Source of the DNA: Gammaproteobacteria bacterium
GTDB taxonomy: Bacteria; Pseudomonadota; Gammaproteobacteria; Steroidobacterales; Steroidobacteraceae
DNA: 64,000 nucleotides
Direction: 5' to 3'
NCBI GenBank assembly: GCA_030037905.1
Contig: JASHPX010000117.1
Location: 108 to 64,107, forward strand
A program made the position numbers and the translations under genes. The notes under the pieces are model-generated. The model worked only from the letters and a program-made list of their open reading frames with translations. It did not search any database and was not told where the DNA came from. Of the stretch, positions 32,945-47,104 are shown piece by piece. Position 1 is the first letter of the stretch; the number at the start of each line of letters is the position of its first letter.

Positions 32945-34351
32945 CTACAACGCTTCCGAGGCATAGTCTGCCAGGCGCGAGCGCTCCCCCCGCACCAGCG
33001 TCACGTGCCCCGCATGTGGCCAGCCGCGAAAGCGATTCACGACATAAGTGAGGCCGCAGGTCGTTTCGGTCAGGTAGGGGGTGTCGATCTGCGCAATGTT
33101 GCCCAGGCACACCAGCTTGCTGCCGGGGCCGGCGCGGGTGACCAGTGCCTTCATCTGCTTGGGCGTGAGATTCTGGGCCTCGTCCAGGATGATGAAGCGG
33201 TTCAGGAAGGTGCGGCCGCGCATGAAGTTCAAGGAGCGGACTTTGATGCGGTTGCGCAGCAGATCATTGGTGGCCGCGCGACCCCAGCTGCCGCCCTCCT
33301 CGCTGTGCGTCAGAACCTCCAGGTTGTCCATCAGCGCGCCCATCCAGGGCTCCATCTTCTCCTCCTCCGTCCCGGGCAGGAACCCGATGTCCTCCCCGAG
33401 CGGCACGGTCACGCGCGTCATGATGATCTCGACGAAGCGATTGCGCTCGAGCGTCAGCGTGAGCCCCGCGGCAAGCGCGAGCAGCGTCTTGCCGCTGCCG
33501 GCCGGCCCGAGCAGTGTCACACAGTCGATATCCGGGTCGAGCAGCAGGTTGAGTGCGAAGCTCTGTTCGCGGTTACGCGCCGTGATACCCCAGACTCCGT
33601 GCCGCTCGCTGCGAAAATCACGCGTGAGCTCGAGCCGCGCCGCCTGCGCGTCCACGCTGCGCACGATCGCTTCGATCCCCTGGGGCTCCTCCTGATAGAC
33701 GAACAGGTTCGGCCACCAGGCATTCGCGGCCGGTCCGCTGATCTGGTACCAGGTGCGATCCGCCTCCTTCCACGAGCGCATGTCGCGGCCATGTCGCTCC
33801 CAGAAGTCCGCCGGCAGCAGTTGCACGCCGGTGTACAGCACGTCGGCATCTTCGATCGTGCGGTCGCTGTAGTAGTCCTCGGCGTGCACGCCCACGATCG
33901 CGGCCTTGATGCGCAGGTTGATGTCTTTGGACACCAGCGTCACGCGGGTCTGGGCTTCCTGGCGCTGCAGCGCCAGGGTTTGACCGAGGATCGCATTGTC
34001 GGCGCCGGCGCCGGGCAGCCCCTCGGGCAGTCCGGCCGACAGCGCGCGCGTCTGGAAGAATAGCCGCCCGCTGGGCGGTCGTTTGCCATGATTGCCGCTG
34101 AACCCCGATGGAATGACCAGCCCGGCGTCGATCTGCTCCTTGACGAGGTCACGCATCATGTCGTCGAGAAAGCGACTGACCTGGCGCGCGTTGCGCGAGG
34201 CCTCCGACATGCCCTTCTTGTTGGCGTCCAGCTCCTCGAGCACGACCATGGGCAGGTATACGTCGTGCTCCTCGAAGCGGAAGATGGCGGTCGGGTCGTG
34301 CATCAGCACATTGGTGTCGAGCACGAATAGCCGGCGGGGAGCGGACTTCAC
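32945..34351 (-). CDS. PIN-domain PhoH-like ATPase (PhoH2/YlaK-like)
   Basis: 468 aa from GTG 34351, which overlaps the bcp stop (GTGA). PIN motif LFVLDTNVLMHDP and P-loop LLGPAGSGKTLLA. The track ORF begins at TTG 34519 inside bcp. Confidence 0.85.
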   Translation of the reverse strand: MKSAPRRLFVLDTNVLMHDPTAIFRFEEHDVYLPMVVLEELDANKKGMSEASRNARQVSRFLDDMMRDLVKEQIDAGLVIPSGFSGNHGKRPPSGRLFFQTRALSAGLPEGLPGAGADNAILGQTLALQRQEAQTRVTLVSKDINLRIKAAIVGVHAEDYYSDRTIEDADVLYTGVQLLPADFWERHGRDMRSWKEADRTWYQISGPAANAWWPNLFVYQEEPQGIEAIVRSVDAQAARLELTRDFRSERHGVWGITARNREQSFALNLLLDPDIDCVTLLGPAGSGKTLLALAAGLTLTLERNRFVEIIMTRVTVPLGEDIGFLPGTEEEKMEPWMGALMDNLEVLTHSEEGGSWGRAATNDLLRNRIKVRSLNFMRGRTFLNRFIILDEAQNLTPKQMKALVTRAGPGSKLVCLGNIAQIDTPYLTETTCGLTYVVNRFRGWPHAGHVTLVRGERSRLADYASEAL

Positions 34352-34986
34352 AGCGATTCGGCGGCCGCCAGCACCGCTTGGGCGTGTCCACTCACCTGCA
34401 CCTTGCGCCATTCCCGGCGCAGCACTCCGTGCGAGTCGAGCAGGAAGGTGCTGCGCTCGACGCCGGGAAAGGAACGGCCATAGAGATGCTTCAGCCGGAT
34501 GACGTCGAACTGGCGGCAAATCGTCTCGTCGGCATCGGAAAGCAGCGCGAACGGGAATCCCATCTTGTCGCGGAACTTCTCGTGCGAGGCGAGGCTATCG
34601 CGCGAGATCCCCACGATATCGGTGCCGGCAGCGGCAAAGCGCGGCGCGAGAGCAGCGAAATCCCGTCCCTCGAGCGTGCAGCCGGGCGTGTTGTCGCGCG
34701 GGTAGAAGTAGATCACCAGCTTGCGGCCGCGCGCTTGCGACAGCTGCCAGTCGGAGCCGCCAGTGGCGGGAAGTGAGAAATCCGCCACGGCGGTCCCGAG
34801 CGCCACCGTGGCCGGCGCCTTCGGGCGGCTCGAGGCCGCGGGGCCGGTTGCCGCGGCGCGGCTCGCAGTCCTGCGGGCGCCTCGTCCCTGCCGAGCCTTG
34901 GTGATGTGCTCGCCGGCTCGGGCGTTGCGCGCCGTCGGCGGTGTGCGCGGTGTGCGCGGGGTTCGGGTGGTGCGGGGGCTGCTCAT
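34348..34986 (-). CDS. bcp: Peroxiredoxin Bcp (thiol peroxidase), possibly with a basic N-terminal extension
   Basis: Motif LVIYFYPRDNTPGCTLEG (peroxidatic Cys). ATG 34986 overlaps the gcvR-like stop (ATGA). An internal GTG at 34806 would give a standard ~152-aa Bcp. Confidence 0.85.
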   Translation of the reverse strand: MSSPRTTRTPRTPRTPPTARNARAGEHITKARQGRGARRTASRAAATGPAASSRPKAPATVALGTAVADFSLPATGGSDWQLSQARGRKLVIYFYPRDNTPGCTLEGRDFAALAPRFAAAGTDIVGISRDSLASHEKFRDKMGFPFALLSDADETICRQFDVIRLKHLYGRSFPGVERSTFLLDSHGVLRREWRKVQVSGHAQAVLAAAESL

Positions 34987-35525
34987 GATTTCACCGGTTC
35001 GAGGATGGCGTCCAGGTTCAGCGAGTCACAGAAGTCCATGAACTCCTCGCGCAGCTGCGCGATGTGCAGCTTGGCGGGCACCTGCACCACCATCTGCGTG
35101 GCGAACATGGGTGCACCGGTATGGGCCGCCGCATAGGCGCGCGTCGATACGTCACTGATATCGATCCCGCGGGAGGCGAAGAACCCCGATAACCCGGCGA
35201 CGATACCCGTCTGATCCAGGCTCACGATGTCTACGGAGTAGGGCAGCATGTCCGTACGAGCGGTGCGCGGCTCGGTGCGCTTCAGATGCACGCTGAGGCC
35301 GCTGCCGTCGGCCAGCCGCGTCAGCTCCGATTCGATGCGCGCCAGTGCATGCCAGTTGCCGCTCACCAGCAACAACATGGCGAACTCGGCGCCCAGCGCC
35401 GTCATGCGGCTCTCGGCGACGTTGCCACCACATTCACTGATGATGCGCGTAAGCTCGTGGACCATGCCCGTGCGGTCGCTACCGATGGCGGAGACGGCGA
35501 GATGCTGTTTCATCGGGTCGGACAT
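34983..35525 (-). CDS. gcvR: GcvR-like tandem ACT-domain regulator
   Basis: 180 aa from ATG 35525. MSDPMKQHLAVSAIGSDRTGMVHELTRIISECGGNVAESRMTALGAEFAMLLLVSG parallels the E. coli GcvR N-terminus. gcvR-bcp lies next to dapA, as in E. coli. Confidence 0.75.
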   Translation of the reverse strand: MSDPMKQHLAVSAIGSDRTGMVHELTRIISECGGNVAESRMTALGAEFAMLLLVSGNWHALARIESELTRLADGSGLSVHLKRTEPRTARTDMLPYSVDIVSLDQTGIVAGLSGFFASRGIDISDVSTRAYAAAHTGAPMFATQMVVQVPAKLHIAQLREEFMDFCDSLNLDAILEPVKS

Positions 35526-35660
35526 CGCAGTGGTGCCGGGCAGTGTACCGGGACTCAGGCGCCTTGCGAACGGCCAGAACCGCGCGGCTTGCGCCCGGGG
35601 ACCGCTGGCCCGTAACATCGCGCGCCCCGGGGTTCGTTTCAACGTATTCATAAGCTGAGA

Positions 35661-37095: not shown

Positions 37096-37187
37096 GGAGA
37101 GGTGGCCGAGCGGTCGAAGGCGCTGGACTGGAATTCCAGTAACATCTTCACGGGTGTTCGTGGGTTCGAATCCCACCCTCTCCGCCA
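37096..37187 (+). tRNA. tRNA-Ser (anticodon GGA)
   Basis: Hand-folded cloverleaf. Acceptor GGAGAGG/CCTCTCC, anticodon stem CTGGA/TCCAG with loop CTGGAAT, a long variable arm, T-arm GTGGG-TTCGAAT-CCCAC, discriminator G, and encoded CCA. Confidence 0.92.
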
Positions 37188-37191
37188 CCCG
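37168..37191 (+). repeat. Direct repeat, proximal copy (tRNA-Ser 3' end; att-like)
   Basis: gaatcccaccctctccgccacccg matches 43762-43785 at 23 of 24 positions in the same orientation. Confidence 0.85.
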
Positions 37192-37226: not shown

Positions 37227-40088
37227 TTAAGGGATCGCTCCTGGGTCGGCCGGGACTGTCAACGTCTGCGGCGCGGCTTGCTTGATGCGACCCAACAACC
37301 ACGCGCGCTGGCGTTCGTTCCGGTTCTCGATCCTGGAGAGATCCCGCTCGAGATCGTGATCCCCCATTGCACGGGCACCCTGAAGGAGCGCGGCCACGCA
37401 AGCCGTGCTTTCATTCGTCATCAGCCACAGACGCTGAAGGTCGCGTAGCAATCCGAAGGGGGTTCGTGCCCGGCCGACGAGTGGTGTCCGGTCGAGCAGC
37501 TTCGATTCGCCGTCAGGCAGTTCGCCATGGGTCTTCACGTAGGGACGGATCGCGGTCGCGTTTTCGCGCGACCAGGTAATGAATAGCGCACTCTGCATGC
37601 CGACGTCCGGCGCGGTCGCGTGGCAGTCGCGCAGCTTCTCCCAGCCACGGACGAGGCGGTCCTCGCTGGTCAGCAACAGGCCAATGTAGTCGGCCAGATG
37701 CGTGCGGACTTCGTGTCTGCCCGCACGCTCCGCCGCGGCATCGTCGAGTTTGGACTCGTCCGGCTGCGCTAGCAGCGCGCCAGCCGCCTTCTGCAGCTTG
37801 ACGGCGGCGTATTTGAAATGCGGCTGCTTGCTGACAGGGTCCCACTCGTAGAGGGTGATCTCGTTGGCGGCGCGTGGCCGCCCCGGGTCGTCCCAGTAGC
37901 CATAGTGGAACGGCATGAACAGCGTGCCTGGCTCGATAGCGCCGATCCGCGCCGGCGCTTCTGCGACGCCGCGGCGGGAAGTGACGCGCAGCATCTCGCC
38001 TTCGGCGATGCCGAGACCGCGCGCATCGTCCTCGCTCACCTGGATGAAGGCGTCGGGTGCGGCGTCCCGCAGCGCCTTGGACCGTCCCGTCTTGGTGCGC
38101 GTGTGGAAGTGATAGACGACGCGCCCCGTGGTGAGGAAGAACGGATATTCCTCGTCCGGCTCCTCCGTCGGCGGGACATATTCGACCGGACGCAGCAAGG
38201 CGCGCCCGTTCGGTTCTCTCGCGCGATACTCCTCCGCCGTGATCGCCGCTCCCGTCAGCAGGTCGTGACCGTAGCTTTCACAGTAATTCGGATCGGTGTC
38301 GAAGGTGAGGTCGGTGTAATAGCGGACCGAGCCGTGCGGATGCTGCTCGTTAGCCGGCCAGGGGATGCCCGAACCCTCGCTCAGCTTCGCATAGGAGAGG
38401 CCGGAATAGTCGCACGGCCTGCCGCGCGAGCATTCGCGCCAGGCGTTGAATGCGCCTTCGGCGTCCGTCCACTTGATCAGCGCTGCACCGTCCTTATCGC
38501 GGAAATCCATGCGCCGGGCGAAATCGAGGAATATATCGAGGTCCGACCGCGCCTCTCCGGGCGGCTCGATCGCCTTGTGATTCAAATGCACGACACGGTT
38601 GACATTGGTCGAGCAGCCGGTCTTCTCGCCCCAGATCGCCGCAGGCAGCACCACATCGGCCATCTGCGTCGTCTCGGTCATGAACGCGTCCTGCGCGATC
38701 ACGAACACGTCCTGCCTGCGCAGAATCGCGCGCAACCGGTTCAGGTCCGAGAACGAGACCGCCGGGTTTGTTCCCACGACCCACAGCACCTTGATCGAGC
38801 CGGCCTCGGCATAATGAAAGATCTCCAGCGCATGGGTCGCCGCGCTCCAATTCGGCAAGGTAGCCGGCTCGACGTTCCACAGCTTCGCGAGCTCTTCGAT
38901 GTGGCGAGGGTTGGCGAAATTGCGAAAACCCGGCAGGTCACCGCCTGTCCCGGTTTCGCGGCTGTTCTGAGCGGTGGGCTGGCCGTTCATTTGCAGGATG
39001 GCGCAGCCGGGTCGGCCGATTCGGCCCAGCACCAGGTTGACATTGTTGACCTGCACGGCTGCTGCCGTGCCCTGGTTGGACTGGTAGACCCCTTGCAGGC
39101 AGGTGGTCAGCAGCATCCGGGAGCGGCCGATCATGGCCGCCGCCTGCCGGAGTTGCTCGGCGGGGATCTGCGCAATCTGGGCGACTCGTTCAGGCGTGTA
39201 GGAGGCGACGGTGCGGGCCAGATCGTCGAAGCCGATCGTATGAGTGTCGATGAAGGCGCGGTCGGCGAAACCCTGTTCGATCAGCTGCTGGATCAGGCCG
39301 TTCAGCACCGCGACATTGGTGCCGAGTCGCGGCGTGATATGCAGATCCGCCTCCGCCGCCGTCGCCGTGCGGCGCGGGTCGATCGCGATCATGCGTGATG
39401 GGGCGGTCGCACGCCGGCGGTCGAGTACCCGTGCCCACAGCACCGTCGCGGTCGCAGCCATGTCGTGACCGACCAGCAGAAAGCAATCCGTGACGTCGAT
39501 GTCTTCGTAGGCGCCCGGCTGACCGTCGGACCCGAATGTCTCCTTGAGCGCAGCGCCGGCCGTCGCCGTGCACAGGCGCGTGTTGCCGTCGACGTGCAGT
39601 GTGCCGATACCGGCTTTCGCGATGACACCGAGCGTATAGTTCCCCTCGGCGAACAACTGCCCGGAGGTGTAAAACCCGATGGAGCCGGCCGTATAGCGTT
39701 GCTTTGCGTCCTTCACGCGCCGGACGATCAGGTCCATCGCGTCGTCCCAGCTCGTGCGCTCGAGTCGGCCATGACGGCGGACGAGCGGGTAAGTCAGCCG
39801 GTCGGCGCTGGCATTGGCCTCCCAGCCGTGCAGGCCCTTGGGACCGAGGCGGCCGCGATTGACCACATCCACCTCCCGCCCGCGCACGCCGACGATGCGC
39901 CCACCCGGCCGATCATCTTTGACGCCGATATCGATTCCGCAACCGTTCGAGCACAGAAAGCAGCACGCCTGCACCCAGCGATCGGGTGGCTCGTCGAGGT
40001 TCTGATCCACCCGTACCGGCCAATGCCCGTCCAATGGCGGCGTGCGCGGTCCCCAGATGTCGGCGACACTGTCACGGCTGCTGGCCAC
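37227..40088 (-). CDS. Molybdopterin (bis-MGD) oxidoreductase, Nas/NarB-like catalytic subunit with an extra ~185-aa C-terminal domain
   Basis: 953 aa. GTG 40088 lies 1 nt after the encapsulin stop. N-terminal 4Fe-4S motif CCFLCSNGCG (CxxCxxxC). Mo-ligand context GNTRLCTATAGAAL...YEDIDVTDCFLLVGHD. C-terminal MopB barrel YPFFLTTGRVVYHFHTRTKTG. The residues after ...AAVKLQKA are unassigned. Confidence 0.75.
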   Translation of the reverse strand: MASSRDSVADIWGPRTPPLDGHWPVRVDQNLDEPPDRWVQACCFLCSNGCGIDIGVKDDRPGGRIVGVRGREVDVVNRGRLGPKGLHGWEANASADRLTYPLVRRHGRLERTSWDDAMDLIVRRVKDAKQRYTAGSIGFYTSGQLFAEGNYTLGVIAKAGIGTLHVDGNTRLCTATAGAALKETFGSDGQPGAYEDIDVTDCFLLVGHDMAATATVLWARVLDRRRATAPSRMIAIDPRRTATAAEADLHITPRLGTNVAVLNGLIQQLIEQGFADRAFIDTHTIGFDDLARTVASYTPERVAQIAQIPAEQLRQAAAMIGRSRMLLTTCLQGVYQSNQGTAAAVQVNNVNLVLGRIGRPGCAILQMNGQPTAQNSRETGTGGDLPGFRNFANPRHIEELAKLWNVEPATLPNWSAATHALEIFHYAEAGSIKVLWVVGTNPAVSFSDLNRLRAILRRQDVFVIAQDAFMTETTQMADVVLPAAIWGEKTGCSTNVNRVVHLNHKAIEPPGEARSDLDIFLDFARRMDFRDKDGAALIKWTDAEGAFNAWRECSRGRPCDYSGLSYAKLSEGSGIPWPANEQHPHGSVRYYTDLTFDTDPNYCESYGHDLLTGAAITAEEYRAREPNGRALLRPVEYVPPTEEPDEEYPFFLTTGRVVYHFHTRTKTGRSKALRDAAPDAFIQVSEDDARGLGIAEGEMLRVTSRRGVAEAPARIGAIEPGTLFMPFHYGYWDDPGRPRAANEITLYEWDPVSKQPHFKYAAVKLQKAAGALLAQPDESKLDDAAAERAGRHEVRTHLADYIGLLLTSEDRLVRGWEKLRDCHATAPDVGMQSALFITWSRENATAIRPYVKTHGELPDGESKLLDRTPLVGRARTPFGLLRDLQRLWLMTNESTACVAALLQGARAMGDHDLERDLSRIENRNERQRAWLLGRIKQAAPQTLTVPADPGAIP

Positions 40089-40089
40089 G

Positions 40090-40914
40090 TCATTCTCCCA
40101 TCGGCTGCTTTTTCTCGTCGGGGGAGAGCACGACAGCAGCCTCGCTCGTCAGCAGCCGGAACGTGAAGGTCTCCAGAAAGTACAGCTCGACGGCCGTGCT
40201 GGAATGGCTCGAATACCCGATGGAGATGTCCTGACCGATGTCCAGCTCGAAATCACCGCTGCGAGTCGTGAGCACGAATCCGCCCTCGATGGCGGGTGCC
40301 CAGATGATCCCTGCATCCACCTCGCGCTCGAGATGGTGAAAGACCGGGTAGCCTTCGTCGGTTCCCCCGCTCGCGGCGGTGTACGCGTCGGCCCCGAGCA
40401 CGAGCGCATACGGTCCATTGACGCCCGCCAGTCGCAATTGGCTGACCGCGTGCGCAACAGCGCCCGGATAGCCCCGGATATTGGCGGGGAGGGCGATCTT
40501 CGGATTGCTGCTGCCTGCACGGATGCCCTGAATTCCCGCAGCGATATAGCCGTCGAAGACGGCGCGATCTTCTGCGAAGGCAATCGTGCGTGCGGCTTGC
40601 TTCACCGGTGACCAGTCCGAGTCCGTGGCGCCTCGCCCGACATCGTCAATCGCCTGCCGTGCGAGCTCGAAGGGAACGCGCAGCTCGACGATCGCTTTCG
40701 CGTCGCGTTGAGCAGCCTGGATGCCGTCGCCGGGGGCCTGGATCGGATGAAGATGTCCGGTGCCCACAGCCGCCAGGTCCAGCCCTCTCGGGTCGGGCAC
40801 ATCGACGACCCGCCGCGCCGCCAAATGGCGCTTGAGGGTGCGGGAGGCCTCCTGCTCGATCTGAGCCCAGGCCTTGTCGGAGATGGGGGCGAGTTCCCGA
40901 TGGAGATTGTTCAT
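40090..40914 (-). CDS. Family-1 encapsulin shell protein (linocin M18-like, HK97 fold)
   Basis: 274 aa from ATG 40914, which overlaps the DyP stop (ATGA). The N-terminus MNNLHRELAPISDKAWAQIEQEASRTLKRHLAARRVVD is the characteristic encapsulin start. The 439-aa track ORF is an upstream extension into dyp. Confidence 0.85.
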   Translation of the reverse strand: MNNLHRELAPISDKAWAQIEQEASRTLKRHLAARRVVDVPDPRGLDLAAVGTGHLHPIQAPGDGIQAAQRDAKAIVELRVPFELARQAIDDVGRGATDSDWSPVKQAARTIAFAEDRAVFDGYIAAGIQGIRAGSSNPKIALPANIRGYPGAVAHAVSQLRLAGVNGPYALVLGADAYTAASGGTDEGYPVFHHLEREVDAGIIWAPAIEGGFVLTTRSGDFELDIGQDISIGYSSHSSTAVELYFLETFTFRLLTSEAAVVLSPDEKKQPMGE

Positions 40915-42089
40915 GTCTTGTCTCTTGGTCTGAGAGAACCGATACCGAGCGACCCGTCTGTGCAGAGCGGACGCGTTGACGGCCTGTCCGCCGCCGGTAG
41001 TGCGTGCGGCGTCTTCCCGCCATCGGGCGATGGAGATGGACTGTGCGTTGCGACGTGGTCGAGGAAGCCCGCCGTCGGCACGAAGAACAGCGTGCCCGTG
41101 ACGGCGTGGCTGAAATCGAGCAGGCGATCGTAGTTGCCCGGGGGCCGTCCGACAAACATGTTCTCCAGCATCTGCTCGATCCGGTGCGGCGAACGGGCGT
41201 AGCCGATGAAATAGGTGCCGAACTCGCCCTTGCCGATCTCCCCGAAGGGCATGTTGTCGCGCAGGATTTCGAGCTGCTGCCCGTCCTCGATGATCGTGGT
41301 CAGTGCGTTGTGCGCCGAGGCCGGTTTTACGGCGTCGTCCAGCTCGACATCGGAGAGCTTCTTTCGGCCGATGATTTTCTCCTGTTCCTCGATCGGCAAT
41401 GCATTCCATCGTGTCAGATCGTGCAGATACTTCTGCACGATCACATAGCTTCCGCCGGCGAATGCGGCATCTTCTTCTCCGATGATGGCGGCTCTGATGG
41501 CGGCCTCTTCCGCCGGATTCTCCGTGCCGTCCACGAAACCGATCAGGTCGCGGTCATCGAAGTAATTGAAACCGTGCACCTCGTCCGCCGTCGAGACCGC
41601 TCCAACCAGCCGCGACATGATCTGCGTCGCCAGTTCGAAGCACAGATCCATGCGTGCGGAGCGGATGTGAAACAGGATGTCTCCCGGCGTCGAGACCGCA
41701 TGGTGCACGCCGCGGATTTCACGGAAGGGGTGCAGGCCTGCGGGTTTGGGCGTACCGAAAAGTCTATCCCAGGCGTCGGAACCGAAAGCCATGACGCAGG
41801 AAAGCCGTCCCTCCAGGTCCCGGAAGCCCACCGTGCGCAGAAGTGCGGCCAGATCGCCACACAAGGCACGCACCGCGGCCTCACTACCGCCCCCGGCGTT
41901 GATCGTCACGATGAGGAAGATCGCCGCACGCGTGAGCTGTGCCACGACAGGTTGTGGGGCAACCGATGCCACACCGGCCGTGTTGCCGGCGCGCCCGGGC
42001 TCCCGGCCGTTGTCAGCGGCGGGATCTGCCGGCGAAGCCTGTCGGCCGGACGGGCAGCACGGGAGTGTGTTGGCGCGCAACGCTGGCAT
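40911..42089 (-). CDS. DyP-type peroxidase with a C-terminal encapsulin cargo-loading peptide
   Basis: DyP GxxDG motif GFVDGTENP, plus IFLIVTINAGG and FGTYFIGYARS. C-terminal ...DGSLGIGSLRPRDKT matches the SLGIGSL-type targeting peptide. The start is uncertain: ATG 42089 gives a ~40-aa N-terminal extension. Confidence 0.85.
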   Translation of the reverse strand: MPALRANTLPCCPSGRQASPADPAADNGREPGRAGNTAGVASVAPQPVVAQLTRAAIFLIVTINAGGGSEAAVRALCGDLAALLRTVGFRDLEGRLSCVMAFGSDAWDRLFGTPKPAGLHPFREIRGVHHAVSTPGDILFHIRSARMDLCFELATQIMSRLVGAVSTADEVHGFNYFDDRDLIGFVDGTENPAEEAAIRAAIIGEEDAAFAGGSYVIVQKYLHDLTRWNALPIEEQEKIIGRKKLSDVELDDAVKPASAHNALTTIIEDGQQLEILRDNMPFGEIGKGEFGTYFIGYARSPHRIEQMLENMFVGRPPGNYDRLLDFSHAVTGTLFFVPTAGFLDHVATHSPSPSPDGGKTPHALPAADRPSTRPLCTDGSLGIGSLRPRDKT

Positions 42090-42098
42090 CCGGGCGAA

Positions 42099-43259
42099 TC
42101 AGGTCAGCTTGTAGGATTGGGCGCCCGTGCCGGCGAGTGCCCCACCGGCAACGATGAGATATTCCTCGCGGATCGGGGTTGCGCCGAAATGGCTCTGCAG
42201 GATCTCCAGCGTGCCGGCCGCATAGCGTGCCTGCGCGGACAGCGAGCTGCCGGAGATATGCGGTGTCATGCCATTGAAAGGCATGGTTCGCCAGGGATGA
42301 TCCGCCGGTGCAGGCTGCGGGAACCACACGTCACCGGCGTAGCCGGCGATACGGCCGGACGCGAGAGCACGCACGACGGCGTCGCGCTCGAACAGCTTCC
42401 CGCGCGCCGTGTTGATGAGGTAGGCCCCGCGTTTCATCTTGGCGAACATTCTGTCGTCGAAGAAGTGTTCAGTCGAGGGGTAGAGCGGCATATGCACGTC
42501 GATGATATCGACGGCGCCCACGAGCGACTCCGCGTCGGGATGGAACGTCAGGTCCAGCTCCTTCTCGATCTGCGGGCTGAGCCGGTGCGGATCGCTATAG
42601 TGCAGGTGCAGATCGAAGGGTTTCAGGCGACGCAGCACTGCAAGACCGATCCTGCCGGCTCCGATTGCACCGAAGTGCATGCCTTCGATGTCGTAGCTGC
42701 GCGCCGCGCAGTCCGCGATGTTCCACCCACCATAGGTTGCGATCCCGTGTGATGGCAGGTAATTGCGCACCAGCGACAGCACCATCATCACGGCATGTTC
42801 TGCCACGCTGATGCTGTTGGAGCCGGTGACCTCGGCTACCGTGACGTGAGCGCGTGCGGCGGCGTCGAGATCGACATGATCGGAACCGATACCGGCGGTC
42901 ACGGCGAGTTTCAGCTTCTTCGCCTTCGCGATCCGCTCCTTGGTCAGGTATGCCGGCCAGAACGGTTGGGAGATGACTACTTCCGCGTCCGGCAGGTGCC
43001 TTTCGAACTCCGAGTTCGGGCCATCCTTATTGCTGGTCACGATCAGCTCGTGGCCAAGCTTCTCCAGGTAGCCGCGAAGGCCGAGCTCACCCGATACGCA
43101 TCCGACGAGCTCGCCCGGCTTGAATCCAAGGGGTCCCTTCGGGGTAGGCGCGGTTTGGCCGTTGGCGTAGCGGGTGATGGTCGGGATGTCGTCCCTGGGA
43201 TAGAGGGGTGGGTATCCCGTTTCCGGATCCGGATAAAGGACACACAGAATCTTCGCCAT
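42099..43259 (-). CDS. fdh: NAD+-dependent formate dehydrogenase (D-2-hydroxyacid dehydrogenase family)
   Basis: 386 aa from ATG 43259. Near-collinear with classical FDH: MAKILCVLYPDP...VISQPFWPAYLT...AGIGSDHVDL...SISVAEHAVMMVLSLVRNY...GAGRIGLAVLRRL...GDVWFPQPAP...GGALAGTG. Confidence 0.92.
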   Translation of the reverse strand: MAKILCVLYPDPETGYPPLYPRDDIPTITRYANGQTAPTPKGPLGFKPGELVGCVSGELGLRGYLEKLGHELIVTSNKDGPNSEFERHLPDAEVVISQPFWPAYLTKERIAKAKKLKLAVTAGIGSDHVDLDAAARAHVTVAEVTGSNSISVAEHAVMMVLSLVRNYLPSHGIATYGGWNIADCAARSYDIEGMHFGAIGAGRIGLAVLRRLKPFDLHLHYSDPHRLSPQIEKELDLTFHPDAESLVGAVDIIDVHMPLYPSTEHFFDDRMFAKMKRGAYLINTARGKLFERDAVVRALASGRIAGYAGDVWFPQPAPADHPWRTMPFNGMTPHISGSSLSAQARYAAGTLEILQSHFGATPIREEYLIVAGGALAGTGAQSYKLT

Positions 43260-43761
43260 AAGGGTTCGCAGCACAGAAGAAGCCGGATGGGCACTATACC
43301 CCGCTGCGTGACGAACAATCGCGGGCGAAGGGTGGCTGGTCAGCCTTGCGTACACACCTATGAGCTGTAGCTCCCCGGAGTTGCGAGCCTGTGAAGAAGC
43401 CGCCGCCGCGATTCCAATGCTAGTCGGCCGACTCCGAGTCGCCCGTAATGCCCGTATCGGCACTTCCGAGAACTACCGGTGTATACACTGCGAGGACCAG
43501 GCTCAGCCGCGCACTGTCGATGGCGAGATCGCCGACCCGTAGGCACGGAAATCTTCAAACCCGACACGGACAGGATGCCGGAGGTCCGTCAGCGGCTCAT
43601 GAAAGCTGCGACTGATGAAGCAAGCGCCCGAATAGGCGCGCGGCGGTGCAGCAGTGGCAGTAATGACGTCCGTGCGTAGTCGGATTTACGCACACGAGCG
43701 TCGGGAATATCGAGAAACGGCCGCAGGCCGGCCCCGAAGGGGCGAGGCGCGCAGCGCCGAT

Positions 43762-43785
43762 GAATCCCACTCTCTCCGCCACCCG
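43762..43785 (+). repeat. Direct repeat, distal copy (partial tRNA-Ser 3' end; att-like)
   Basis: gaatcccactctctccgccacccg has one C>T difference from 37168-37191. No tRNA body lies upstream of it. Confidence 0.85.
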
Positions 43786-44773: not shown

Positions 44774-44850
44774 TGCCGCAGACTGGAGCGGGGGAGCGGG
44801 TGCGCTGCCCGCGGGGGGCGCCTGAAGAACCCGGTGGCCGCGGAGGCGCC

Positions 44851-44905
44851 GGTGCCAGGGCCGGTGCGGGTGCCCGGGCCGGCGCGGATGCCAGGGCCGG
44901 CGTCG
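44851..44905. repeat. Imperfect 18-bp tandem repeat x3 in a convergent intergenic region
   Basis: ggtgccagggccggtgcg / ggtgcccgggccggcgcg / gatgccagggccggcgtcg, read directly. Confidence 0.7.
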
Positions 44906-45888: not shown

Positions 45889-46278
45889 TCACTGCGGGGG
45901 CCCCGGCGCCGGCTTGCCCAGAGTTTTGCCGTTCGCCAGTATGATCCCGACATACGAGCCGCCTGCCCGCCCGTCGCGCAGCGGCAGCATGGTCACAGTC
46001 ACCTTGTCGCCCAGCTTGAGGGTGAAGCGCCGCCAGCCTTCGTGAATGAGATTATTCGGGCTGCCCATTTCCACCGACCAGATCTCGGTGGCCCCCGCGG
46101 CGTTCACGGTGCTCACCTTGAAGCTGGCGTGCGGGTTCGTCCAATTGAATTCGGTGACCGTACCGGTGACGTTGATGTGCTTGGTCGTGTCGAACATCGC
46201 GTAGGAGTGATGTACCCACGCCGGCGTCGAGAACGAGGCCAGTATCAGGCCGCACGCCGTGATCACCAGAGCTTTCAT
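45889..46278 (-). CDS. Small secreted protein; predicted mature N-terminus HHSYAMFD (DUF6152-like by recollection)
   Basis: 129 aa from ATG 46278, with GGAG upstream. Signal peptide MKALVITACGLILASFSTPAWV, then HHSYAMFD...FNWTNPH. Paralog of the next gene. Confidence 0.6.
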   Translation of the reverse strand: MKALVITACGLILASFSTPAWVHHSYAMFDTTKHINVTGTVTEFNWTNPHASFKVSTVNAAGATEIWSVEMGSPNNLIHEGWRRFTLKLGDKVTVTMLPLRDGRAGGSYVGIILANGKTLGKPAPGPPQ

Positions 46279-46334
46279 GGCACTACTCCTCGGCGCGAGC
46301 CTCATCCGGGTCCCTACCTGCCGCTCCCGGGGCG

Positions 46335-46739
46335 CTACTTCACCACGGGCACATTGATCGGGGCGTTGCCGCGGCGGGTCGGATCCAGGATCATCGAACC
46401 GTCGGGCAGCTTGACGCTGACGAACAGGCCACCCTTGCGGCCGTCCCGCAACGGATTGATGACGACGGTGACCTGGTCCCCCGGCTTCAATGTCCGCGAC
46501 CTCCAGCCCTGACGCCGCAGATTGTTGACGCTGTTCATCTCGATCTGCCAGGTTTGGACGCCGCCGTCGGAGCGGCGCACGTCCAGGAAGATCCAGGAGT
46601 GGGGATTGGTCCACTGAAACTGGAGGACGGTGCCCTGCAGGGAAAGCTGCCGCGCCTGGTCGAACATTGCAAAGGAGTGATGTGCCACGGCGGCGTTTGC
46701 CAGAGCCAGAGCCAGCAGCCCGGCTGCGCACCCGCCCAT
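46335..46739 (-). CDS. Small secreted protein; predicted mature N-terminus HHSFAMFD (paralog)
   Basis: 134 aa from ATG 46739 (ATG 46799 is also possible). Signal peptide ...LLALALANAAVA, then HHSFAMFD...FQWTNPH. Confidence 0.55.
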   Translation of the reverse strand: MGGCAAGLLALALANAAVAHHSFAMFDQARQLSLQGTVLQFQWTNPHSWIFLDVRRSDGGVQTWQIEMNSVNNLRRQGWRSRTLKPGDQVTVVINPLRDGRKGGLFVSVKLPDGSMILDPTRRGNAPINVPVVK

Positions 46740-47104
46740 GAGCCGTATCTTCGGCGCAAGCCTCCGGGGCGCTTCATCCTTGGGGGGACCTAACCGCATT
46801 GCCGAAGTCCGTGTGGCCTGATGGATCGATCTGACTACTGCCATTTTTGATTATGCTCGCTTTTTTCTTTCATCGCGCGGCTGCGCGACCGTCCCGGGCA
46901 CGGGGGGCCGCGCCTGAAGTATGCCGCCCACGTGGGGGAAAGTCTCATGCGGGGCCAACGGGTTAGGTGTGGGCAGGGCATGTCGATGTCCGGCGCACGA
47001 CGTATCATCATGCATGCGGCTCGCCGCCGTCTGCTGTGGGTTTTCGTGTCTATGCGTCATTGCCGAGCGGGGCGGCGCGTGAAAGTCGCCATAGGAGACT
47101 GCTG

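Follow-up and report, generated by a model that had tools for sequence, protein, structure and literature searches.

A molybdopterin oxidoreductase as a recurrent neighbour of DyP encapsulin loci, and a putative redox module in a gammaproteobacterial genome

Introduction

Encapsulins loaded with dye-decolourising peroxidases (DyP) are the commonest encapsulin type, and the physiological substrate and electron donor of the peroxidase are unknown (PMC12746231). Here we describe a DyP encapsulin locus at positions 37227-43259 of a 64,000-nucleotide stretch of contig JASHPX010000117.1 (Gammaproteobacteria bacterium, Steroidobacteraceae), the whole of which is referred to as the window. The peroxidase and shell genes of this locus stand between a gene for an NAD-dependent formate dehydrogenase (FDH) and a gene for a 953-residue molybdopterin oxidoreductase, here called MopB, and we find MopB to be a genuine accessory of DyP encapsulin loci, one that recurs among them and has apparently not been described before. 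We propose, with a probability of roughly 60%, that the locus encodes a stress or redox module around a DyP-loaded family-1 encapsulin, in which FDH and MopB would act as co-expressed cytosolic redox partners.

The closest described system is an enterobacterial operon in which an NAD-FDH gene lies directly upstream of the DyP and encapsulin genes, an arrangement well conserved in Klebsiella, Escherichia, Salmonella, Shigella and Enterobacter (Jones et al. 2024, PMC10960027) and repeated in PMC11623594 and in a 2025 review (PMC12746231). In Enterobacteria the genes for FDH, DyP, encapsulin and a sigma factor similar to RpoH form a block between transposases, and the FDH has no targeting peptide according to the authors (PMC10960027). 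The present locus shares with it the NAD-FDH directly upstream on the same strand and lacking a targeting peptide, the C-terminal targeting peptide of DyP, the shell start overlapping the DyP stop, and an apparent location on mobile DNA. The two differ beyond the shell and at the flanks. The enterobacterial block has a divergent gene for the sigma factor, whereas here a same-strand molybdoenzyme gene begins 1 nt past the shell gene and holds that position, no RpoH homologue being found in the window by tblastn with the K. pneumoniae protein; and transposases flank the former, whereas a tRNA-Ser gene and a 24-nt repeat flank the latter.

Classical family-1 DyP encapsulins (Mycobacterium tuberculosis Cfp29/DyP, Brevibacterium linens, Rhodococcus jostii) have the same core as this locus, a cargo gene upstream of a gene for a shell of some 270 residues, with a targeting peptide of the GSLxIGSL type, and differ in their accessory genes. 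In a large genome-mining survey these are listed for Actinobacteria as short-chain oxidoreductases, cupins and DUF1345 proteins, and its main text contains no mention of formate or molybdenum enzymes (Andreas & Giessen 2021). The initial annotation of this locus had placed both FDH and the molybdoenzyme outside the known operon types. For FDH this does not hold, the FDH-DyP-encapsulin pairing being already known and not novel (PMC10960027); for the molybdoenzyme it does, in that full-text searches found no paper linking an encapsulin with a molybdopterin enzyme or nitrate reductase.

Results

Four genes around a family-1 encapsulin

Four intact open reading frames (ORFs) on the minus strand, fdh, dyp, the encapsulin gene and the MopB gene, fill positions 37227-43259, preceded by a non-coding stretch:

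43260..43761, minus strand: upstream non-coding stretch of about 500 nt, predicted promoter region, with no homology to any related locus (blastn)
42099..43259, minus strand: NAD-dependent formate dehydrogenase, 386 aa, starting MAKILCVLYP (NF005750)
40911..41971, minus strand: DyP-type peroxidase cargo from the likely start GTG 41971 (longest ORF from ATG 42089; profile searches)
40926..40958, minus strand: DyP C-terminal targeting peptide DGSLGIGSLR (translation and motif scan)
40090..40914, minus strand: family-1 encapsulin shell, 274 aa (NF041155, Linocin_M18)
37227..40088, minus strand: 953-aa oxidoreductase of the molybdenum bis-molybdopterin guanine dinucleotide (Mo-bisMGD) type, 'MopB clade A' (Pfam/NCBIfam, PDB search, Foldseek, family alignment)

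The four family assignments of the initial annotation are borne out by hidden Markov model searches of Pfam and NCBIfam. FDH matches the equivalog NF005750 over its full length with 659 bits against a cut-off of 329, and the profile begins at ORF residue 69 (MAKILCV), corresponding to coordinate 43259; the protein shares 86% identity with its counterpart in the related locus L162 (locus labels are those of our surveys) and 75% with the FDH of the K. pneumoniae encapsulin operon. DyP contains Dyp_perox_N (PF04261) and Dyp_perox_C (PF20628), scores 291 bits with TIGR01413, carries the GXXDG motif of DyP enzymes as GFVDG and ends in ...DGSLGIGSLRPRDKT. The shell scores 342 bits with NF041155 (cut-off 100) and 308 bits with Linocin_M18 (PF04454), its best homologues (83-88% identity) coming from Hyphomicrobiales, Xanthobacteraceae, Afipia and Nitrobacter genomes. 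This taxonomy ruled out a mycobacterial origin, which the GC content had first suggested; taken by themselves, the shell matches would make a soil bacterium of the Hyphomicrobiales/Xanthobacteraceae the probable host. The targeting peptide in the DyP translation and the overlap of the dyp stop with the shell start agree with the earlier view of DyP as the cargo, an adjacent cargo gene with such a C-terminal peptide being what is expected of a family-1 encapsulin. From these genes we predict an icosahedral shell packaging DyP.

The tight packing of the genes is confirmed by direct reading of the sequence. Between the fdh TGA (42101-42099) and ATG 42089 lie 9 nt, the dyp TGA and the encapsulin ATG overlap as ATGA at 40914-40911, and the encapsulin TGA (40092-40090) is separated by 1 nt from GTG 40088, which opens the 953-aa ORF and is preceded by a Shine-Dalgarno-like GGGAGA within the 3' end of the encapsulin gene. 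The 9-nt gap between fdh and dyp needs revision, however. ATG 42089 is there and opens a 392-aa ORF, but its first 36-45 residues or so are left out by the DyP profile matches and by most of the tblastn alignments to 70 homologues, which set in around residues 37-46; therefore GTG 41971 (353 aa) is probably the dyp start, and the spacer would be about 127 nt rather than 9. Simple motif scans for signals between the genes gave nothing convincing: none of the junctions has a consensus sigma-70 promoter on the coding strand or a convincing terminator, the sole terminator-like match being a weak 5-bp stem inside dyp and such matches being fewer than in shuffled sequence. Upstream of fdh, motif scans found no EcfG, RpoH or sigma-70 consensus promoter, and the LysR regulator gene that precedes fdh in L162 and is also present in L006 is absent from the 43260..43761 stretch (tblastn). 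The co-translation of the four genes that had been claimed is not sustained, spacing being its sole ground. The order of the genes is nonetheless not a matter of chance, because DNA homology to other loci sets in at the fdh ATG (43259) and extends as far as the final MopB codons (blastn) and L162 repeats the order FDH-DyP-encapsulin-MopB.

Linkage of the molybdoenzyme to encapsulins

The gene-neighbourhood survey proposed in the initial annotation was run from both sides. From the side of MopB it covered 80 metagenome loci and ten look-ups of individual proteins. Homologues of 945-970 aa including the C-terminal tail domain are abundant. Clade A comprises those with a MopB at least 75% identical to ours, amounting to 13 informative loci after collapsing near-duplicates, and the second tier those with 52-67% identity overall (59-73% in the core by tblastn). 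An encapsulin and/or DyP gene, or a shell remnant, lies within 7 kb of MopB in 12 of the 13 clade-A loci, Candidimonas nitroreducens being the only one without any trace of either; none of about 71 second-tier loci, Cupriavidus included, has an encapsulin. From the side of the shell, among 70 related encapsulin loci from GTDB genomes, the same enzyme (82-84% core identity) follows the encapsulin gene in three (L001, L006, L049). The arrangements found are the following:

FDH-DyP-encapsulin-MopB: the window and L162
DyP-encapsulin-MopB: L001, L075, L163
Encapsulin-MopB without DyP: L006, L049/L161
MopB and Hva1 convergent with encapsulin-DyP: L154, L076/L156
DyP-encapsulin-NDH2-Hva1-cardiolipin synthase-MopB, 3.4-4.4 kb apart: L074/L148
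DyP 6 kb downstream of MopB, with a YdeP-like molybdoenzyme and FdhD alongside: L157
Remnant of the encapsulin gene, residues 194-263, immediately preceding MopB: L155 6648-6855

The linkage has thus outlasted rearrangement into six gene orders, in loci from Alphaproteobacteria and Acidobacteria and on unassigned metagenome contigs, which argues for function rather than for a single copied block. The exact four-gene order of the window recurs in one surveyed locus (L162). FDH precedes DyP-encapsulin in five of the 70 shell loci (Nitrospira, Pseudomonas citronellolis, Rhizobium, Agrobacterium and a gammaproteobacterial metagenome-assembled genome, MAG); the FDH-DyP-encapsulin-RpoH operon was recovered on a K. 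pneumoniae plasmid, and Burkholderia pyrrocinia has a looser version with the same FDH 4 kb from DyP-encapsulin.

The adjacency could still be meaningless, the islet being a patchwork assembled by horizontal transfer and MopB simply an assimilatory nitrate reductase. The neighbourhood of DyP-encapsulin pairs is indeed highly variable, with DUF488 genes in 13, NDH-2 in seven and YdeP-like molybdoenzymes in six of 71 loci and ClpB, DnaJ-like and UvrAB genes among the further neighbours; the islet is truncated at both ends, and the homologues of MopB are annotated as 'nitrate reductase' in the source databases. Against this stand the retention of encapsulin or DyP in all but one of the clade-A loci through at least six gene orders and across phyla, compared with none in the second tier, and the absence of adjacent nirBD/nasDE or nitrate-transporter genes from any locus examined; a plain assimilatory enzyme is further opposed by scores below the NasC and NasA equivalog cut-offs and by the loss of the fourth iron-sulphur (FeS) cysteine. 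We consider this explanation unlikely.

Two side observations concern the same loci. In L155 the shell remnant stands ahead of an intact MopB-DUF488-Hva1 block, the compartment gene having decayed and the molybdoenzyme having been kept. A molybdoenzyme of another kind, an FdhF/YdeP-family protein of about 765 aa, is encoded at a distance of 1-3 kb from DyP-encapsulin in Rhizobium, Agrobacterium and Pseudomonas; loci with this enzyme are L050, L052, L054, L055, L063, L067, L027 and L157, in the last of which it adjoins FdhD, and it constitutes a second, independent link between molybdoenzymes and encapsulins.

Accessory genes in related loci

Two further genes recur around the module:

Hva1_TUDOR gene: L001 11732-11932, L006 11735-11932, L075 6028-6225, L004 8855-9061 and about 25 other loci
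Rieske ferredoxin/ferredoxin-NAD+ reductase fusion: L162 9847-11376 (with MopB), L039 9095-10618, L160 4228-5760

The very conserved Hva1_TUDOR protein (PF11160, 70 aa) follows MopB wherever the downstream flank is available, except in L162, where it lies about 3.4 kb downstream, and in L163, where it was not detected. It directly follows the encapsulin gene in 12 further loci without MopB and is absent from the second-tier MopB loci; the core layout in the relatives is therefore DyP-encapsulin-[MopB]-Hva1. Literature searches found no paper tying Hva1/DUF2945 to encapsulins, and the eponymous fungal protein has been tied to energy metabolism (PMC5008624).

In L162 a 509-aa fusion of a Rieske-type ferredoxin and a ferredoxin-NAD+ reductase overlaps the MopB stop by 4 nt. 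In NCBIfam it comes closest to dioxygenase reductases, the NirB N-terminus and NorW, and the same fusion adjoins DyP-encapsulin in Mesorhizobium (L039) and FDH in Burkholderia (L160), making it a candidate electron-transfer partner of the module. Downstream of it in L162 come a MoaD-like gene, ModA, MobA, Hva1 and MscS, and a LysR gene lies upstream of fdh; this LysR is 89% identical to that of L006. In L157 MopB follows genes for molybdenum cofactor biosynthesis and molybdate transport. In L163 (4463-7946) DyP-encapsulin-MopB is followed on the same strand by a DUF8021 gene and then, two genes downstream of MopB, by a quinol-type nitric oxide reductase, qNor (NorB_cytochrome_c-like and COX1). 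Stress genes of the neighbourhoods include RpoH, ClpB, DnaJ/GrpE/HspR, MscS, NDH-2, DUF488 and a YdeP-like molybdoenzyme, and the L049/L161 locus belongs to a MAG of Vicinamibacterales with a second, DyP-linked encapsulin locus (L066).

A NapA-like core with a three-cysteine FeS motif

Within MopB we distinguish the following parts, all on the minus strand:

39819..39980: N-terminal FeS domain, aa 37-90, with only three conserved cysteines (Pfam, PDB alignment, family alignment)
37707..37781: linker, aa 770-794, poorly conserved and modelled with a predicted local distance difference test score (pLDDT) below 50 (AlphaFold2, alignment)
37251..37706: predicted C-terminal ferritin-like (YciE/bacterioferritin/Dps-like) four-helix bundle, aa 795-946 (AlphaFold2, Foldseek)
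37227..37250: aberrant 3' end ...TLTVPADPGAIP before the stop, where the family has ...TLxVPS (DNA alignment, blastn)

The domains Molybdop_Fe4S4, Molybdopterin and Molydop_binding cover aa 37-761, and the roughly 190 residues that follow have no Pfam match. Over its whole length the core can be aligned with the monomeric periplasmic nitrate reductase NapA of Desulfovibrio desulfuricans (E=2e-121, 32% identity in a PDB sequence search), and the AlphaFold model of MopB (pLDDT 74.5) matches the corresponding structures 2V45/2NAP with a target-normalised TM score of 0.89 (Foldseek). Cys173 (RLCTATAG), the putative molybdenum ligand, aligns with the NapA cysteine in RLCMASA, and the arginine of GQPTAQNSRE (GQPxAxxxRE) is conserved with NapA; an Mo-bisMGD domain set with a cysteine ligand is that of the Nap/Nas type. 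A molybdenum-dependent formate dehydrogenase is ruled out, as no histidine stands behind the ligand cysteine. The N-terminus has no RR motif of a twin-arginine (Tat) signal, and we therefore place MopB in the cytoplasm. It differs from NapA in this lack of a Tat signal, in a glycine for the fourth FeS cysteine, and in an extra linker and ferritin-like domain of about 185 aa.

The FeS motif reads C43-x2-C46-x3-C50, with Gly82 in the position of the fourth cysteine. This substitution (LCLKG in NapA, RLGPKG here) is found in 42 of 42 aligned family members, so that the family does not have the four cysteines of a [4Fe-4S] site. Only the encapsulin-linked clade carries a 4-aa insert beside the FeS site (DRPG, aa 59-62), and a shorter linker also marks it. 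Of the earlier label 'Nas/NarB-like', the Nap/Nas-like core thus stands, whereas the three-cysteine motif and the ferritin-like C-terminal domain set the protein apart from ordinary Nas or NarB. It belongs to an uncharacterised family with hundreds of members, separated from the curated Nas, Nap and Fdh families by this motif together with the four-helix bundle.

Two known systems invite comparison. The assimilatory system of Paracoccus consists of NasC, the Rieske protein NasG and NasB in an electron-transfer arrangement; the L162 partner likewise holds a Rieske domain and FAD/NAD domains, as NasG and NasB do, but nitrite reductase and transporter genes are missing near MopB. Elsewhere the three-cysteine pattern is known from arsenite oxidase with its [3Fe-4S] cluster. 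AioAB accordingly resembles MopB in the FeS motif of its molybdenum subunit and in having a Rieske-type partner. The two are only about 20% identical, and MopB has a molybdenum-ligand cysteine and is cytoplasmic, the Rieske domain of its partner being fused to a flavoprotein reductase.

This likeness raises the alternative that MopB oxidises a small substrate (e.g. nitrite, arsenite, sulfite or formate) in the manner of arsenite oxidase, passing electrons by way of the Rieske-flavoprotein to NAD(P)+ or else to an acceptor in the ferritin-like domain. The FeS pattern holds for the whole family, the Rieske partner overlaps the MopB stop in L162, and arsenite oxidases are among the structural matches. 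The closest matches in both sequence and structure are however of the Nap and Fdh types rather than Aio, the ligand cysteine is conserved in MopB whereas the molybdenum of arsenite oxidase is not known to have a protein ligand, the ferritin-like tail lacks di-iron ligands, and the cluster type is itself deduced from sequence. An oxidising MopB therefore seems improbable to us.

A ferritin-like tail and the cargo question

The tail is modelled by AlphaFold2 with a pLDDT of 91 as four long helices. The best Foldseek match is YciE (3OGH), with query- and target-normalised TM scores of 0.75 and 0.81, and XCC3681, bacterioferritins and Dps are also among the best; over the matches to YciE, BfrB and Dps these scores range from 0.55 to 0.75 and up to 0.83, respectively, at E values of only about 2.5e-3. 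On the strength of this model the tail has a fold of the ferritin-like superfamily. It has no sequence match in the PDB or Pfam, and a di-iron site was not found in it: only E809, E893 and H823 are conserved, and neither helix B nor helix D carries an ExxH. The missing ExxH motifs led us to reject a rubrerythrin-like di-iron peroxidase domain. The fold is thus like that of YciE/YciF (DUF892), while both these proteins and the encapsulated ferritins differ from the tail, which lacks the two ExxH motifs and is fused to a molybdoenzyme or to HPP domains.

An exhaustive profile-free search of 1.84 billion representatives returned about 300 tail homologues, many of them stand-alone proteins of about 150 aa (one with a weak DUF892 match) and several of about 350 aa with the tail domain N-terminal to an HPP transmembrane domain; proteins P0165, P0172 and P0182 illustrate the stand-alone form or the N-terminal fusion to HPP-family membrane proteins. 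Nitrite transporters are among the members of the HPP family (Maeda et al. 2014, cited in PMC4137279). In MopB the tail and its invariant end ...RQAAPQTLxVPS occur in both tiers and are not specific to the encapsulin clade.

Ferritin-like proteins are classic encapsulin cargo, and the end ...AAPQTLxVPS resembles the LTVGS core of Myxococcus targeting peptides. MopB itself might be packaged in the shell or docked on it by an unrecognised signal, located either in the linker and ferritin-like domain or in this C-terminal peptide. A disordered linker of about 25 aa precedes the modelled bundle, the C-terminal peptide does not vary in the family, and encapsulin-MopB pairs without DyP occur in two unrelated lineages, Stellaceae (L006) and Vicinamibacterales (L049/L161); the DyP-linked L066 in the latter MAG would allow the MopB-linked shell to be a dedicated paralogue. 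Cargo status is nevertheless very unlikely, given that the same tail and peptide occur in about 71 distant homologues and in Candidimonas, none with an encapsulin nearby, that in the models the peptide closes helix 4 instead of forming a free tail, that it is altered in the window (..VPADPGAIP), that no LxIGSL-type motif is present, that convergent and 3-6 kb-separated arrangements are atypical of core cargo, and that L006 looks like an FDH-DyP deletion from an L162-like ancestor, to judge from the closely similar LysR.

A probable tRNA-Ser islet and its flanks

The block is bounded by a tRNA gene and a pair of direct repeats:

37096..37187, plus strand: tRNA-Ser(GGA) gene, convergent with the MopB gene, presumed integration target (ARAGORN; RF00005, 61.5 bits)
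37168..37191, plus strand: left direct repeat, 24 nt (tRNA-Ser 3' end and 4 nt), GAATCCCACCCTCTCCGCCACCCG
43762..43785, plus strand: right direct repeat, 23/24 identical, GAATCCCACTCTCTCCGCCACCCG

The repeat has two copies in the 64 kb at up to three mismatches, against 0.00 expected from 100 shuffles. The copies lie 6594 nt apart, and the 6.6 kb between them hold exactly the four genes and the roughly 500 nt upstream of fdh; a direct repeat of a tRNA 3' end bounding an insert is att-like and characteristic of tRNA-targeted genomic islands. The ORF abutting the MopB stop is the antisense strand of the tRNA gene. The similarity to L162, L001 and L075 at the DNA level sets in with the fdh ATG (43259) and gives out at about 37240-37250 (blastn). 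Where the relatives read ...TVPS, stop and then Hva1, the window reads ...TVPADPGAIP, stop and then the tRNA, the break falling in the last MopB codon. For a comparison with an empty site, the genes flanking the islet gave no match in any of the loci fetched, and tblastn found no homologues of Hva1, LysR, RpoH or the Rieske-flavoprotein in the window. The GC content of the islet (64.5%, flanks 63-67%) is not distinctive of foreign origin. We read the block as a decayed or trans-mobilised integrative islet carrying a truncated copy of the module, from which, by comparison with its relatives, the genes for Hva1, LysR and the Rieske-flavoprotein appear to have been lost.

A second peroxide-related gene is found 2 kb from the islet, on the chromosomal side of the tRNA. 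It encodes an AhpC/TSA peroxiredoxin (34348-34986) and shares 4 nt with an ACT-domain gene (34983-35651); a PIN-PhoH gene occupies 32945-34519. On the other side, the 43.8-45.8 kb region has long ORFs without Pfam match and, at 44833-44904, an 18-nt tandem repeat (GGTGCCAGGGCCGGTGCG-like) of four overlapping units. Two adjacent minus-strand ORFs at 45889-46844 match DUF6152 (E=2e-33 and 9e-39), a tandem pair of an uncharacterised family.

Discussion

We propose that the four genes would be co-transcribed from a promoter upstream of fdh, and that DyP hexamers would be packaged in the shell and consume peroxide. DyP is most likely the only cargo, with FDH and MopB outside the shell. This is one of the two options that the initial annotation had offered and remains the best-supported reading. 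Regex scans agree with that annotation that neither FDH nor MopB contains an SLGIGSL-like peptide (SLGIGSL/LxIGSL-type for MopB). In the cytosol FDH would convert formate to NADH, and MopB would serve as an NAD(P)H-linked oxyanion reductase of the Nap/Nas type. The leading candidate reaction is nitrate to nitrite, because of the Nap-like active site, the tail in common with proteins of the HPP nitrite-transporter family and the qNor neighbour. Electrons may pass from NAD(P)H to FAD, the Rieske centre, the FeS cluster and finally molybdenum by way of the Rieske/ferredoxin-NAD+ reductase fusion, a chain that the contexts of L162, L039, L160, L157 and L163 suggest by analogy with Paracoccus NasB/NasG/NasC. 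The module would then serve combined oxidative and nitrosative stress. The stress-gene-rich neighbourhoods fit the proposed role of DyP encapsulins in oxidative stress and may extend it towards nitrosative or formate stress.

Several points weigh against this proposal. The substrate of MopB and the direction of its electron flow are the weakest of them: the three-cysteine cluster and the Rieske partner equally recall arsenite oxidase, a substrate-oxidising enzyme, so that the flow could be reversed. MopB scores below all of the curated equivalog cut-offs of NCBIfam (NasC 431 against 1100, NasA 397 against 1000, NapA 352 against 904, Fdh-alpha 486 against 666), and no nitrite reductase (nirBD/nasDE) or nitrate transporter genes were found in about 15 clade-A neighbourhoods. 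The Rieske-flavoprotein adjoins MopB in one locus only and also occurs with DyP-encapsulin in the absence of MopB. The encapsulins without an adjacent DyP in L006 and L049/L161 are awkward for MopB as a mere accessory. The operon status of the four genes is inferred from their spacing. Finally, no Pfam domain of an integrase or transposase is present in the islet, in the flanking ORFs or in about 8 kb to the right, and the mobility of the islet is thus deduced from the repeat.

A bolder version, which we regard as a long shot, would make MopB a partner of the shell in one of two ways. Its linker, ferritin-like domain and C-terminal peptide might together form a targeting module; this would be the first molybdoenzyme-loaded encapsulin and would fit the encapsulin-MopB pairs without DyP. 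Alternatively, MopB might supply a diffusible redox shuttle for DyP that crosses the shell pores and would be the long-sought physiological electron donor of the encapsulated enzyme. The shuttle may be nitrite, formed from nitrate with electrons from formate via FDH and NADH; its re-oxidation by DyP would close a formate-driven, peroxide-detoxifying cycle.

For the DyP encapsulins as a family, the conserved neighbours are the main clue to their role. Three recurrent neighbours are new with respect to the encapsulin literature searched, namely the MopB clade, Hva1_TUDOR and the Rieske-ferredoxin/NAD+ reductase fusion, and with the known FDH they outline an NAD(H)-linked redox module around the compartment. 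Such a module would turn a vague role in oxidative stress into testable questions: whether MopB reduces nitrate, whether DyP uses nitrite, and whether the genes are induced together.

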